Positions 4,921 through 11,244 of a stretch of 64,000 nucleotides of DNA are shown one piece after another (the first letter of the stretch is position 1; each line of letters begins with the position of its first letter). This stretch comes from Podarcis cretensis (taxonomy: Eukaryota). The translations under genes and the position numbers were made by a program. Location of the stretch: assembly GCA_951804945.1 (NCBI GenBank), contig OX638151.1, positions 29,512,001 through 29,576,000 of the forward strand. Direction: 5' to 3'. A model generated the notes under the pieces. That model saw nothing but the letters and a program-made list of their open reading frames with translations. It ran no database searches and was not told the origin of the DNA.

Positions 4921-5364
4921 GTACCCGGCGCCCGCCGTCGGCCGCTCCCTGGGGAGGCGGGTGCCGCTTCGCAGAGACTCGGGGGAAGGTGGCCGTCCAC
5001 CGGGCCAGCTCTGGGGCTGCTGCGCTTCCTCAGTCCCCCATGATGGAATCCCGGAAGCAGCCGCGGCGCTGGGAGGAAACCGGGCCCGACCATTCCTCCC
5101 TTGGTGGGGGTCGCCGAAGCAGCAGCAGCTGTAGGAGCGGCGGCGGCAGCAGCAGCAGCGGGGCGTCTTCGTCCTCGCCGCGACCACCACTCGACCCGCT
5201 TCGTCCTGCCTTCCTCTACGCCCTCCCCGCCGTCAGGCTTAACGCGCCTTCCCTCTGGTCCCTTTCCCCCACCCCCACCCCCCGCTCTGTCTCGGGTGGT
5301 ACGTCCCGGTTGCCATGCCGACTCCTTGTACACCATCAATGGGAGCTGGCTGGGAGGGGGGAAG

Positions 5365-5432
5365 ATGGCCACTCTGGCCAGGCTGCAAGAGAGGCTGCCG
5401 CTCTTCAAGGGGGAGTATTACTCTAGGAACAG
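5365..5432 (+). CDS. SPATA17: Spermatogenesis-associated protein 17, exon 1 (MATLARLQERLPLFKGEYYSRN)
   Basis: Good Kozak context (AAGATGG); MATLARLQ matches the SPATA17 N-terminus; 68 nt ending AG|GTAAAG. Confidence 0.95.
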
Positions 5433-5903
5433 GTAAAGCTTCCTCTCGCCCTCACGCTCGCGCCGCACTCCCCAGCCTGCCCACGGAGCAGCCACTCCCT
5501 CCCCCCCCGGAAAGTTCCCAGGTTTGCTGCGGGGGGGGGGGGGAAGGGGGGGAGAGATAATTTCTTCTTTTGTTTTGACCTCGGAGCAGCAGCAGCAGAA
5601 GCTGCTCTTTCCCTCTCTTCCTCTGCTCCCAGTAGCATAAAATTCACAGGTGAACCAGTGGATTGTGCAAAAAAAAAATCGAAAGGGGAGACCTTGCCCC
5701 CCCCCCCAGTTCATTTCTGGGAGGGGGAGCAGGGGCATGGGGTGGGCAAAAGAAAAGTGAGGGGTTTGGTTTGCTGCTGCACCTTTAGCAACTGCTTCCA
5801 AGATTTTGGGAGGGGCAGCTCAGGCTTGTTGAAATCTCTCCCTATTGTTAAAGGTGTGAGAGACCTATCCACATTGCACCTGGCTATCCAAACTAGCATG
5901 GTA

Positions 5904-5948
5904 AAAAAGGTGAAGGTAAAGGACCCCTGGATGGTTAAGTCCAGTTAA
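5904..5948 (-). mobile_element. Short Sauria SINE 3' tail
   Basis: AAAGGTGAAGGTAAAGGACCCCTGGATGGTTAAGTCCAG resembles the tail of the full copies. Confidence 0.6.
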
Positions 5949-6059
5949 GGGGGCTCATGCCACTACGCTAGTGGAATACTCTTACAGTGCTTCCCTTTGC
6001 TTGTGAGACTTCCTGGTCCTACAAAGATGCCAAGTTATGGTTTGAAGGTAACAAGTGGC

Positions 6060-6223
6060 CATCCTGGCAAAACTAAGCAGGTCTAGGGCTGGTCAGTGCC
6101 TCCAGTGAGCGACTTCCTTGGAACCACATCTATGTTGTGCCTTGATTTCAATGATGGGAGAAAAGTGGGATATAAATGTTTAAAAAACAAACAAATAAAT
6201 AAAATGTTCCCCCTACCCAGGAT
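6060..6223 (+). mobile_element. Decayed 5S rRNA-derived SINE with A-rich tail
   Basis: AACTAAGCAGGTCTAGGGCTGGTCAGTGCC resembles 5S rRNA AAGCTAAGCAGGGTCGGGCCTGGTTAGTAC; ends GGGATATAAATGTTTAAAAAACAAACAAATAAATAAA. Confidence 0.55.
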
Positions 6224-7039
6224 ATCAAGAGGCATGGGTATCTCTCAAAGAAATAAAATAAATAGACAAGCCCCAGGTAGACCTGGCATCTCAGAAACTT
6301 GTAATCCAGGACTATCCTTGGGTTGATTATGAGTTGTAGATGTGGCATCCAGACATCTTTCCACTCACCACTGAAACTCTCTGTTCCCACACTGTTTTCT
6401 TTCCCTCTTAATTAATTGCACTGCTACCACAGTCAACTTCAGAGTCTACCACTCCACTGCATTTCCCTCAAAAACAAAACAAAACACAACCCAAAGCAAT
6501 CCACCAGGTTGATAACTTTCCTAGGTTGTCATATGCTATTCAAACTCTTTCCTTTCCCAGCAAAAAAAGTTACAGCAGCACCATGCTACTTTGCAGGGCT
6601 AACATAACATACACACGCACAGTCCCACCCACCCCATCTTGTTCAATATGGATTCAATAATGATTGGCATTAGAGTAATTTTAAAAATATTTATGATTTC
6701 AGGGAATAACCCTACCCCAATTCCTGTCTTTTCTGCTTTTTTTGTTTTTGAGTTAGCATAATACACCGTAATTACAGCTACACTAACATTGTTTTCTGTG
6801 ATGCAGCAATCATTTCTCCATCAGGAAAGACTGCAAGGATGTTGGACACCACTCTTTATTTACTTCCTATCAGTTATAAGACAAAATTGTTTTACTAGGT
6901 TTAATAAAAGAATGTGATCTTACTCAGATAATATATTGTTTGTTTATTCTGCTCTTGAATCATTTGTTTATTTATATGTCACTTAATTGTATGGCTGACC
7001 AAATTGCAAATTGTGAAAAACCATTTCTTGTGTTTTCAG

Positions 7040-7129
7040 ATGCGTAGATGAATATAGAAAAACAGAATATTATGCTGCTGTAAAAATTCAGAGTTGGTTT
7101 CGAGGATGCAAAGTCCGAGCGTATATCCG
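7040..7129 (+). CDS. SPATA17: SPATA17 exon 2 (IQ motif 1: AAVKIQSWFRGCKVRAYIR)
   Basis: ttttcag acceptor, CG|GTAATT donor, 90 nt, frame continuous with exon 1. Confidence 0.95.
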
Positions 7130-7241
7130 GTAATTTGATCTGCATCCAAATTGTAGACATGCATACTTGGAACTCACCCCAACTGATAACATAAGTGTTT
7201 ATTTCTTGGCAAAATGACTTTAGGTTACACCCTAAATCTGT

Positions 7242-7446
7242 ATAAAAAAATTCCTTCCAGTAGCGCCTTAAAGACCACCTAAGTTAGTTCTTGGTATGAG
7301 CTTTCGTGTGCATGCACACTTCTTCAGATACAGCTCATACCAAGCTCATACCAAGAACTAACTTAGTTGGTCTTTAAGGTGCTACTGGAAGGATTTTTTT
7401 TATTTTGTTTTGACTATGGCAGACCAACACGGCTACCTATCTGTAA
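7242..7446. mobile_element. Penelope-like element remnant with inverted pseudo-LTR
   Basis: About 60-bp inverted arms (7244-7303 / 7342-7400); terminal GGCAGACCAACACGGCTACC as I recall from squamate PLE ends; flanking direct repeat CCTAAATCTGT at 7231-7241 and 7447-7457. Confidence 0.8.
7294..7331 (-). ncRNA. Minimal type I hammerhead ribozyme motif
   Basis: Minus strand reads GUAU-CUGAAGA-A-GUGUGC-AU-GCACAC-GAA-AGCU-C-AUAC: stem I, catalytic core, stem II, GAAA, palindromic stem III, UC cleavage site. Confidence 0.7.
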
Positions 7447-7764
7447 CCTAAATCTGTTTGTTATTTACCACTTTGCCAAGTCTCGCTGAAGTTAAGAACT
7501 TGCTTTGCACATGGAACCCCCTTATTTTTCAAATGAGAAAAATTAATAGCTTTCGGCTATTTTGAAATTTTCTTCTTATTTTCTTGTTTATTTTATTTAA
7601 AATTGCTAGGCTAAATAAGCTGGAGGAAATAATTTAAATCCCTTTAGTCATTTATTTGTGAATGTCAGTCATGTGGCATTCACTTGACAAGATGTCTCTC
7701 AAGAGATAAGTTTTTTAAACTTGGCTTCTCTAGACATTTGCAAAGTATCTAAATTAACAAAAGA

Positions 7765-7905
7765 CTGCACATATAGTTCAGTTGGTAGAGACCCTTAATC
7801 TCAGAGTCATGAGTTCAAGCCTCACATTGGGCAAAAGATTCCTGCATTGCAGGAGTTGGACTAGTTGACCCTTGTAGTCCCATCCAACTCTACAATTCTG
7901 TGATC
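7765..7905 (+). mobile_element. tRNA-Lys-derived SINE with CR1-like tail (Squam3-like)
   Basis: TAGTTCAGTTGGTAGAG...CTTAATCTCAGAGTCATGAGTTCAAGCC (A/B boxes), then TTGGACTAGTTGACC...TCCAACTCTACAATTCT. Confidence 0.8.
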
Positions 7906-9165
7906 ATATCTGTTGTATCTGTGGGATGCAGTGTGGAGCTCGTGGTAGTACCAGACTGCATCCTGGAAATGTCCCCTTTACTTAAAAATCTGTTGCTGAA
8001 TCTGGCAGCTGCAGTTTCTCCTGCCTGCTTGTTTCCTCTAATCTGCTCCTCCCTGTTTGTTGTGAGGACATACTTCTCATTATAGCAGGCTGGGTGAAGA
8101 TGTTAGAAACAGCTCGTAAGAGATGGTAGAAACCACCATCTCTAAATGTAGCTGCAGACTTAAAAGCTAAGAAGTTTTCCAGGTTACCACCTGGCAATCA
8201 CTAATAGTTGGGGCTTTGTGTAGAGAAGCATGTGGGTTTGCAAGCCTTTTTATACCCTGTGCAGCAGGCTTGTGGATTGAGGAATATGTGTAGAGAACTG
8301 TACCATTTTTTTCATTATTTGAATGTTTCCACCTTGCAGAGGAGCACATGAAATGGTCTAGTACAGACTTAATGTTCCTGACTTTATAGACAGAAATTAT
8401 TAAGTCAAGAACAACCACTGGGGCGGTGCTTTCCACTGTCATCCATTCCCCCCCCCCCCCCCCCGTTCTCTTCCTGCATGCCAGCTTCAGTCAAACCAAA
8501 GATTACCATTATGTCTGGAACAGGAAACTGTGGCTTAATGTGGCTGTTAACCAAGATCTGAAAACAGACCAAGCAGTTCTTTGTTTTGGATGTAACAGGG
8601 ATCTGGTGCAGAAGCTGGTGTACAAGTGGAAGAAGGATGGAGAGGAAGGAAGAGGAAGAGTGTGGGCCCATCGCTTGCTCCCACTTGGATAAACTATGGT
8701 TTATTAAGCCAACAATGTTATGTCCAAACCAGCCTAGTGAAATTTGGTACTATTCTTCTAAGGCTCAAAGTTCAGACAAGCCTAAAGTGGAAAGCAGCCA
8801 GAGATGATTATATTTTTGCCAGCTTATCCTTGTCAGAAGCTGACACTGACTTAAAACTGTTAACGCTTCACATCCTCTTCCCTATTCCTTTTGTGGCTCC
8901 ATAAGAAGTTACATTGGAAAGGGTCCATGATTCAGGCAAGACTTTAGTGCTTTTAATCCCAAATTGATACCATGTATTCAAAAAAATTGGATGAAAGCAT
9001 CAAGATTTAAGCTGCCACCTCAAATTTAGGATGCATATTGATATAAAAAGTCTCCAAATTTTAATTGTCAAGCTAGACTGCTGCATGCACTGGATTTTAA
9101 AAAAAATGGTTCAACTTTTCACTATTTCCAGGGGGAAAAAATCTTACCAAGGTATTTTGTTTCAG

Positions 9166-9247
9166 GTATCTGAACAAAATGATGGTTTTTATTCAGAAAT
9201 GGTGGCGGGGTTATCAAGGAAGACAAAAATTCAGAGAAATGGTGGAG
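9166..9247 (+). CDS. SPATA17: SPATA17 exon 3 (IQ motif 2: YLNKMMVFIQKWWRGYQGRQKFREMVE)
   Basis: tttcag acceptor, GAG|GTAAAA donor, 82 nt, IQKWWR motif. Confidence 0.95.
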
Positions 9248-11244
9248 GTAAAAACTAAATTTGTAATTAAAAATTATTGTAAGCTTTCCATAAGACTGTA
9301 CGCAAATACAAAGTAGGTGAAATCTCTTCAGTTTGGTGCCAAGTACTTGCTAGCTTTTAAATTCACATGCTGTTGATCGGGTATAAATGTTTCAGGATTA
9401 AAGAGGGGGAAATAAATTACCAGCAGGTCTTGTTAACTTTTCTAAGCTGGTTGTAGACTCACAGGTTCTGTTGCTCTTAGAAAAAAGAATAGAGTATTAA
9501 ATATCTGAATTCAAGGGAACAATGAGAGGGAATATCCTTGGCTTCATTGGCCTTATCTCTACCAGATGGGGCTGCACTCCTACTAAAGTTGGCATGGGGA
9601 ACCTCTGATTTGCAAGCCAGATTAGGCCTGCCAAGGGGCCTAATTTGACTTGCAAGGACATTTCCCCACAACTGGCCACCTGCCCCACATCTGAGACATC
9701 AAGTGTGGGGCAGATAAAGCCACAGTTAGGAAGGGACAACTGGGAGCCTTGGTGCGCACACACCTTTCCAGTTGTTCCTCTGCAAGCAGAGCTTGCATTC
9801 AGTGCCTTTTAAATTTGGTGCTTAACGCAAGCCTCATTGAGAATAGTCCTACTCAGGAGTTCTCAAAAGGAGAGTGAATCCTACTCGCAACCTAATAAGC
9901 TGTTCCAAGGCTTTAAAACAACAGATTTTCAGTTTTTTTGGTTTTTAAAAAGCTCTCCCTTCCCTGTGATATTTTTTTGCTATATTAGAAAGGAAGTAAT
10001 ATAATATTAAAGCCAGCATTTTAAGACCTCCTTTAATTAAATGAAAGGAATTATGCCTGGCCTAATGTAATGAAGAAAGCGAATTTTAAAATGAAGTAGC
10101 ATCATTGTGTTCATTTGTAAATAACATATTGCAGCCAACTGTTTCTTAATTGCCCAGACTGTTGATAAATAATCCGGTCCTGCTGCTCTCCACAGACAAT
10201 TTGCTTTGGATCAGACTAGGCAATTCAAATAACACTAATTACAGTGAAACCCTTTTACGGTGAATTCTTCTTTGCCAGGGAGGGTGAGGGGAGTAGTGAG
10301 AGAAAAGGAAACCACATATCACTTTTCCCTCTGATTTGTAGTCCCCCTCCCCTCCAAGTCTGCAACTTATGCTGAATAAAGGACATCTTCTGCCTTGAAA
10401 GTACTTATTTTACTTTTTATGATGCAGTTGTGAATTATGTTCATTTTGCATTTGTAATTAGAGGGCGGAACAGATGTGAAAGCTTAGTGTAAAGTGATGT
10501 ATCCATTAAAATAACCTATCCTGCCAACTGAGTGTTTGCTATAACAGGGGATTCTTTCACTCAGAGTGGGATTCGCCTTTATTGGAAGGGAACCAGGAAA
10601 TGTTTTCTATATCAGGGGATTCACTGTAACATGTTATCATTGTATTTATGATTTTATGATGTTGGAATGAATATTAAATGAAACAAAATTCCCAAGAATT
10701 ACTCAGGAGGCAACTAAGTACATAANNNNNNNNNNNNNNNNNNNNNNNNNNNNNNNNNNNNNNNNNNNNNNNNNNNNNNNNNNNNNNNNNNNNNNNNNNN
10801 NNNNNNNNNNNNNNNNNNNNNNNNNNNNNNNNNNNNNNNNNNNNNNNNNNNNNNNNNNNNNNNNNNNNNNNNNNNNNNNNNNNNNNNNNNNNNNNNNNNN
10901 NNNNNNNNNNNNNNNNNNNNNNNNNNNNNNNNNNNNNNNNNNNNNNNNNNNNNNNNNNNNNNNNNNNNNNNNNNNNNNNNNNNNNNNNNNNNNNNNNNNN
11001 NNNNNNNNNNNNNNNNNNNNNNNNNNNNNNNNNGACTACCATAGATTTTTCTGGTTAAGCCTGCATTATGTATTAGGAAGCCTATCTCTTCAATACAAAG
11101 TTTGATTTTATTCTCTCTAAGCCTAGAACTCTTATTATGTATTATGTATAAAGATTCTTATCTTTTATATGTAAAAATAGGAGTACTGTCTTTGTGTAAC
11201 TGAAATGTATGCCATCTTTCCCCCCACCCCTCCTTGATTCACAG

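Follow-up and report, generated by a model that had tools for sequence, protein, structure and literature searches.

In the window (the entire 64-kb stretch of Podarcis cretensis DNA analyzed here), two plus-strand matches mark exons of SPATA17, and the intron following exon 2 contains a 205-bp insertion (7242-7446) that consists of two head-to-head arms flanked by an 11-bp target-site duplication (Table 1). The minus strand of the insertion carries a minimal type I hammerhead motif, antisense to the gene and 165 nt into the intron (7294-7129 = 165), in agreement with the orientation and the distance from exon 2 given in an earlier, sequence-only reading of this DNA. The SPATA17 pre-mRNA contains just the 3' half of the motif and the 62-bp hairpin, and in one RNA run, the depth over the SPATA17 exons was zero. 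No empty allele of the insertion was seen; one contig of run X15 (6208-7270) enters the insertion by 29 nt.

Table 1. SPATA17 exon matches and components of the fold-back insertion, in window coordinates
Feature	Position	Strand	Details
SPATA17 first coding exon	5365..5432	+	weak colinear match to residues 17-38, E 0.25
SPATA17 exon 2 (IQ motif)	7040..7129	+	match to PDB 9ijj_3B residues 41-68, E 5.9e-8
Left target-site duplication, 11 bp	7231..7241	.	identical to 7447-7457
Short arm	7242..7332	-	pLTR offsets -1 to +89; whole hammerhead, no tail; 89/91 nt identical to the L048 pLTR
Minimal type I hammerhead motif	7294..7331	-	helix I, CUGAAGA, extra A, helix II, GAAA, AGCU palindrome, C17
Predicted cleavage site	7297..7298	-	between C17 (7298) and A (7297); hammerhead numbering as described in PMC4209133
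Junction	7332..7342	+	11-nt duplication of the long-arm start; 7332 is a 1-nt overlap of the arms
Long arm	7343..7446	+	pLTR offsets +29 to ~+133, Penelope tail end; 102/104 nt identical to L048
One-sided tail	7404..7446	+	part of the long arm unpaired with the short arm; tail concept as described in PMC11167929 and PMC8557442
Right target-site duplication, 11 bp	7447..7457	.	first C also continues the tail

Read from 7331 to 7294 on the minus strand, the motif is GUAU CUGAAGA A GUGUGC AU GCACAC GAA AGCU C AUAC, exactly as previously noted. Helix I comprises 4 bp (7331-7328/7297-7294), and the CUGAAGA core (7327-7321) is followed by an extra A (7320), located between nucleotides 9 and 10.1, and by the G10.1-C11.1 pair (G7319-C7306); GAAA occupies 7305-7302, and U16.1 and C17 correspond to 7299 and 7298, respectively. 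The core elements CUGAnGA, GAAA and UH are all present, helix I is short, and an AGCU palindrome at 15.2-16.2 replaces a stable helix III. The helix II region (7319-7306) is a perfect 14-nt palindrome that is predicted to form 5 bp with a CAUG loop; the stem I, core and extra A of the sequence-only reading hold, whereas its 6-bp stem II with a 2-nt loop does not. Hereafter, offset 0 denotes the first G of helix I (7331, minus strand), which places the predicted cut between +33 and +34. Of the model and motif searches suggested with that reading, the minimal-hammerhead descriptor gave a single match in the window and none in 30 shuffles (pattern control, 0 matches in 100 shuffles), whereas an Rfam scan of 5000-10000 returned no hammerhead model among 33 matches up to E 10. 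The lack of an Rfam match limits only the claim of Rfam membership because such motifs are defined by descriptors (as described in PMC4209133). The scan yielded nothing but microRNA hairpins below threshold. The Rfam match to mir-559 has the same score on both strands and reflects the palindrome; a microRNA precursor was rejected given that this score, 56.1 bits, misses the gathering score of 95. By itself, the 38-mer folds no better than shuffled sequences (z -0.44).

The motif is not a stand-alone element. The sequence-only reading overlooked the inverted repeat with its target-site duplication and took for a 5' boundary what is simply the end point of the reverse transcript of the SPATA17 copy. 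The inverted arms (7242-7303 and 7342-7403) extend over 62 bp with 95% complementarity, and the long arm is 5'-truncated within the ribozyme and lacks the core; the window copy has no RT/GIY-YIG frame. Tandem pLTRs, an inverted 5'-truncated copy, a one-sided tail and a target-site duplication, the features of EN+ Penelope-like elements, were all found, and such anatomy is described as standard for endonuclease-bearing Penelope-like elements (PMC3846280, PMC8557442). Head-to-head pLTRs and a one-sided tail are likewise described for Adineta Pen2a (PMC3846280; PMC8557442, Fig. 2), and Pen2a-type insertions are also similar in their duplications of 8-10 bp and in the TATA and Inr-like motifs of the pLTR, but the SPATA17 insertion consists of the pLTR only, 205 bp in all. 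The SPATA17 motif is the hammerhead of a Penelope-like retrotransposon pLTR that was brought in by a head-to-head insertion and is likely inert.

A search of the genome (1.5 Gb, 51 contigs) for the motif, suggested in the same reading, yielded 6,322 exact copies of the 38-mer and none of the reversed control. In longer copies, the end of a GIY-YIG frame lies upstream of the motif. Regions were fetched for four full-length frames, and all four contain an 897-aa frame between two pLTRs that are 3,011-3,016 bp apart (a 3,011-bp unit), with an identical 38-mer in each pLTR, which bears out the assignment to minimal type I hammerheads with a palindromic helix III site in Penelope pLTRs; two of the four also contain an inverted pLTR. 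The L229 protein combines RVT_1 (425-573) and GIY-YIG (795-841) in a single frame, and no solved structure matching the 897-aa protein was found in the PDB. In these masters, an Inr-like TCAGT occupies -5 to -1, and TATATAG is located farther upstream, at -33. Intact frames are present in L229 (G000:C14:51054500-51064000), L230, L231 and L232. The two tandem units of L229 are identical across 2,850 bp; likely, the family was recently active, or else the L229 repeat is an assembly duplicate.

Minimal type I hammerheads of Penelope-like elements, by the account of Cervera and de la Pena (2014, PMC4209133), share with the Podarcis motif the core, the extra nucleotide after A9, the G10.1-C11.1 pair, a palindrome in place of helix III, a 4-bp helix I and the location in the pLTR, and likewise occur as thousands of scattered single copies derived from truncated elements; reptiles (turtle, snakes) are named among their hosts. 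The Podarcis family differs in its highly uniform motif sequence and in the SPATA17 copy being blocked by the inverted arm, and also differs from the Schistosoma hammerheads, for which a helix II of 7-8 bp is given there, by the short helix with a 4-nt loop inside a perfect palindrome. Non-LTR retrozymes are described as similarly non-coding, with a type I hammerhead derived from a Penelope pLTR (bioRxiv 10.64898/2026.07.22.740005, PMC7229834), but form tandem head-to-tail arrays with at least two complete motifs; the SPATA17 insert, with one motif and a head-to-head pair of arms, was accordingly rejected as a retrozyme. The SPATA17 motif is a new member of the known minimal hammerheads of Penelope-like elements, with an inverted, tailed structure that was already known.

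Covariation, another check suggested earlier, was not found within the focal family, whereas in older families of the same genome, the hammerhead fold is maintained through compensatory changes, with modest statistical support. Among 26 distinct core-matched motifs, helix I pair 3 is U-A in 7, C-G in 9 and A-U in 2, and pair 2 is A-U in 14 and G-C in 5; in the 16 motifs from other families, 44/64 and 37/64 cells are paired, values reached by 26 and 31 of 2,000 shuffles, respectively, with kinship ignored. This genome contains two or more older hammerhead families of Penelope type whose helices are different (L233, L238, L240, L242, L250-L260). Five identical variant hammerheads 39-50 kb apart (L245-L249; G000:C3:120.55-120.73 Mb), followed by a second CGAAAGCTT, likely represent a segmental tandem array.

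For the motif alone, the predicted probability of helix I is 0.64-0.73, but it drops to 0.000 in a 62-, 205- or 500-nt context, where forcing the hammerhead fold costs a predicted 16.5-17.4 kcal/mol above the minimum; the SPATA17 hammerhead is thus predicted to be blocked, its cleavage strand being taken up in pairing with the inverted arm. The insert lacks a TATA promoter because it begins at the likely start site of the element, and the descriptor search found no partner ribozyme for a dimer in the 64-kb window. When two motifs are cofolded, they pair through the helix II palindrome (-30.6 kcal/mol), such that a 14-bp helix II duplex is favored and no helix III is supplied. According to the sequence-only reading, the motif would cut antisense SPATA17 transcripts, alone or as a dimer. 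Its core, helix I and helix II are indeed intact and identical to those of the intact masters, and the related anole ribozyme is reported to cleave when the element's protein, which it requires, is added (PMC11167929). Nevertheless, a working cis ribozyme at this locus appears extremely improbable: the upstream inverted arm sequesters the cleavage strand (17.4 kcal/mol), and the insert has no promoter, which both argue against cutting of antisense transcripts; a dimer would lack its partner within 64 kb; minimal hammerhead monomers are reported not to cleave in vitro (PMC4209133); and, as one copy of 6,322, the locus is in no way singled out. Trans cleavage of the SPATA17 pre-mRNA at the two AGCUC/AUAC halves was also considered; it would rely on pairing of ~7-8 bp, with one half locked in the hairpin. 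By these fold predictions, the SPATA17 copy probably does not work and is a passenger folded shut, likely without effect on the host gene, and many of the copies that enter hammerhead counts in vertebrate genomes are likely shut by folding as well.

We then compared the 5' ends of the copies with the start of the ribozyme and with its cleavage site. Contig C1 provided, in its first 9.3 Mb, 99 arms anchored downstream of the cut: offsets -2 to 0 account for 25 of the ends and +1 to +36 for another 39, no arm ends at the cleavage site (+34), and the remaining 35 continue upstream; a few of these calls are indels rather than true ends. Genome-wide, the first base of the ribozyme (offset 0), 33 nt below the TATA box, is the end point of at least 1,590 of the 6,322 copies. 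The base before offset 0, where the masters have T, is G in 1,024 of these and A or C in 566, a G share of 64% versus 33%, even with a pattern for A or C that is 4 nt shorter than that for G and hence favors the A-or-C counts; 2 of 30 inspected G copies are substitutions. By comparison, a non-master base precedes the cleavage product in 50 copies, against 33 one base upstream (p 0.08 for the difference), and 9 of 30 inspected copies of this type are plain substitutions; at most 50 copies end at the cleavage site. The 30 best look-alikes had given the impression that arms stop at helix I without exception, but this proved to be a selection effect: in an unbiased set, 46 of 79 full-motif arms run upstream.

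When a cDNA carries an extra G at its 5' end, this has been attributed to a copied cap (as described in PMC4038843), but the G could also stem from an untemplated C that is added at any RNA end. A second class of ends, for which a cap at offset -2 does not account, has T before GTGTATC (13/13); it may reflect a start at -1 with a cap and an added base, or a 2-nt slippage on GUGU. The same end clusters were detected in DNA-like runs of three other organisms. In four RNA runs, read starts did not accumulate either at offset 0 or at the cleavage site; of the RNA reads on the pLTR, 86-91% continue into host sequence, mostly as read-through. The pile-up of copy ends could, alternatively, mark a splice acceptor (TTTCAG|TGTATC) rather than a transcription start, because the masters carry TTCTGTTTCAG immediately before offset -1 and the intron of Drosophila virilis Penelope is reported to end at helix I (PMC4209133). 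However, a spliced template would give many copies the same upstream exon, whereas the 28 inspected end-type junctions of the G class share at most 1-2 bases; the ends of this class are displaced from the AG by one base, and the TATA box is at the expected distance, so that we see hardly any room for splicing as the source of these ends. The insertions L091, L093 and L096 each link a fragment of the coding start to G and the ribozyme start, with the extra G in all three; these are template jumps from the RNA 5' end.

These ends also bear on the published proposal that the ribozyme processes the element RNA and that cleaved, circular RNA serves as the insertion template (as described in PMC4209133). 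Compensatory changes keep the fold across the older families of this genome, the two motifs of the masters, 3,011 nt apart, could pair as a dimer, and, in the arms that run upstream (35/99), a re-ligated circle would be indistinguishable from uncut RNA. Yet, cleavage-site ends are missing among the 99 arms and, genome-wide, barely exceed the neighboring position (50 vs 33) next to 1,590 at offset 0. Furthermore, the short copies begin 34 nt upstream of the cut, the model already fails for the short class, to which the SPATA17 copy belongs, and catalytic mutants are reported to insert normally in vitro (PMC11167929). A cleaved or circularized template is, accordingly, very improbable. The absence of cut-site ends does not prove that the ribozyme never cleaves because cut RNA may be lost.

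The 3' ends of the arms are equally regular. Of 51 arm pairs, 48 consist of one long arm, which ends at ~+135, and one short arm, which ends at +66 to +102, the three exceptions being nested or spurious pairings, and the same holds for 101 of 103 pairs in a larger set, biased in part, whose pairs had to have adjacent arms and 90% identity; all these samples combine query-biased sets with copies that are young, match exactly and lie within the first 9.3 Mb of one contig. Target-site duplications of 10-15 bp flank 40 of the 51 pairs. The two arms of a long/short pair tend to agree on whether they pass the start: of 44 such pairs, 16 have both arms beyond it, 26 have neither, and only 2 are mixed, compared to ~21 expected. 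Similarly, with 18 of 20 variant alleles scored, the +39 variant is common to both arms in 8 pairs (1.1 expected) and split in 2 (17.6 expected). There is no general homogenization of the arms, which show 61 one-arm differences, including some alignment noise, and the extra G occurs on either arm.

We infer from these ends and arms that the family inserts by twin priming on capped, uncleaved sense RNA. Under this scheme, the element's protein would nick both DNA strands ~11-13 bp apart, and two cDNAs would be primed, one at the tail end (~+135) and the other in a U-rich stretch (~+85 to +102), with the 5' pLTR of a single capped, uncleaved sense RNA as the template for both. Synthesis would proceed toward the RNA 5' end at the helix I start, and the cDNAs would be joined head to head through short overlaps, with one template or one source for both arms. 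Priming on the 5' pLTR of the RNA, with run-off at the cap, would yield short fold-backs like the SPATA17 copy, and priming on the 3' pLTR would yield copies that extend into the coding region. Being located between the priming sites and the cap, the ribozyme would ride along uncut. Overlapping arms on one RNA presuppose strand displacement, which is assumed here, and two RNAs from one source locus would look identical to a single template. We are reasonably confident in the overall reading of the SPATA17 insertion as a fold-back in intron 2 that carries a likely inert hammerhead and that would have arisen by such twin priming on capped, uncleaved RNA. The generalization that Penelope-like elements insert by asymmetric twin priming, with long- and short-site cDNAs made on the same pLTR of one capped, uncleaved RNA, and with this lizard-type family as their genome-wide fossil record, is one toward which we lean only slightly.

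In L1 twin priming, both nicked strands prime cDNA synthesis, resulting in an inversion inside the target-site duplication, and the two arms cover different parts of the RNA. By contrast, the Podarcis arms overlap, and both priming sites are internal. A close parallel is the anole element Poseidon PAc of Anolis carolinensis (Frangieh et al. 2024, PMC11167929), which, by its published description, likewise has a hammerhead upstream of two tail ends and a single RT-GIY-YIG frame, and which, in vitro, nicks and extends both strands from two internal start sites on uncleaved RNA. The two 3' ends of the Podarcis family match these two start sites. The PAc frame is described as starting inside helix II, whereas in Podarcis the AUG at that site opens only 9 codons before a stop, and the start of the 897-aa frame lies behind the tail; head-to-head products, capped ends and paired long and short arms do not figure in the available parts of that account.

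Published proposals explain the inversion by self-priming on antisense RNA (PMC3846280), and they derive the tail from an intermediate that is resolved by the endonuclease (PMC8557442), as described in these sources. Taken together, head-to-head copies would arise by fold-back self-priming on an antisense template and the tail by resolution, and both components are in print. In its favor, a number of junctions (L067, L139, L144) either are palindromic or show an overlap of 12-16 nt that runs through the helix II palindrome, and the shared variants and similar arm lengths fit a copy-back equally well. However, in 8 of 44 unbiased pairs, only the short arm reaches the start, with a G or TGT mark, and the long, tail-bearing arm stops earlier, an arrangement that copy-back from the long arm cannot produce, whereas copy-back from the short arm cannot yield the tail. 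In addition, the extra G marks the 5' end of sense RNA, and both tail ends are described as reverse-transcription start sites of the anole element in vitro (PMC11167929). This combination therefore seems unlikely, if less so than a cleaved template.

If asymmetric twin priming is correct, it would produce the inverted pLTR and the one-sided tail in a single step, replacing both the antisense self-priming and the endonuclease-resolution proposals, and the conserved ribozyme would not define the insertion template. The formation of the inverted repeat and of the tail and the purpose of the ribozyme are stated as open questions in the literature (PMC3846280, PMC8557442, PMC11167929, as described there). 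Our literature search, with most subscription journals outside its coverage, found no account of Penelope insertions that deals with capped ends, with twin priming or with a strict pairing of long and short arms. With its thousands of young copies and intact masters, the family gives sharp predictions for the existing in vitro system, namely, that the template is capped and uncut, that each event pairs a long with a short arm, and that both arms come from the same template.

Three pairs of neighboring insertions share an identical complex junction within each pair: L040/L041 (G000:C1, 44 kb apart), L175/L176 (68 kb) and L107/L122 (868 kb). In all three, the long and short arms are swapped, and each insertion has its own target-site duplication. 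These twins likely result from ectopic conversion of palindrome centers, with paired synchronous insertion being less likely; an origin through a bridge between two sites was rejected because L040/L041 and L175/L176 each include one insertion with its own outer variant on both arms. Palindrome centers are thus sometimes rewritten after insertion, which could blur the junction statistics.

Two other features of the window were noted in passing. On the minus strand at 4920-4864, there is a frame starting with MFRGAEP, which we take to be the start of GPATCH2 as a candidate name; this frame and SPATA17 are arranged head to head on either side of a GC-rich island. At ~5850-5945, there is a fragment of another very high-copy repeat with extreme read depth, presumably the end of a Sauria-type SINE.
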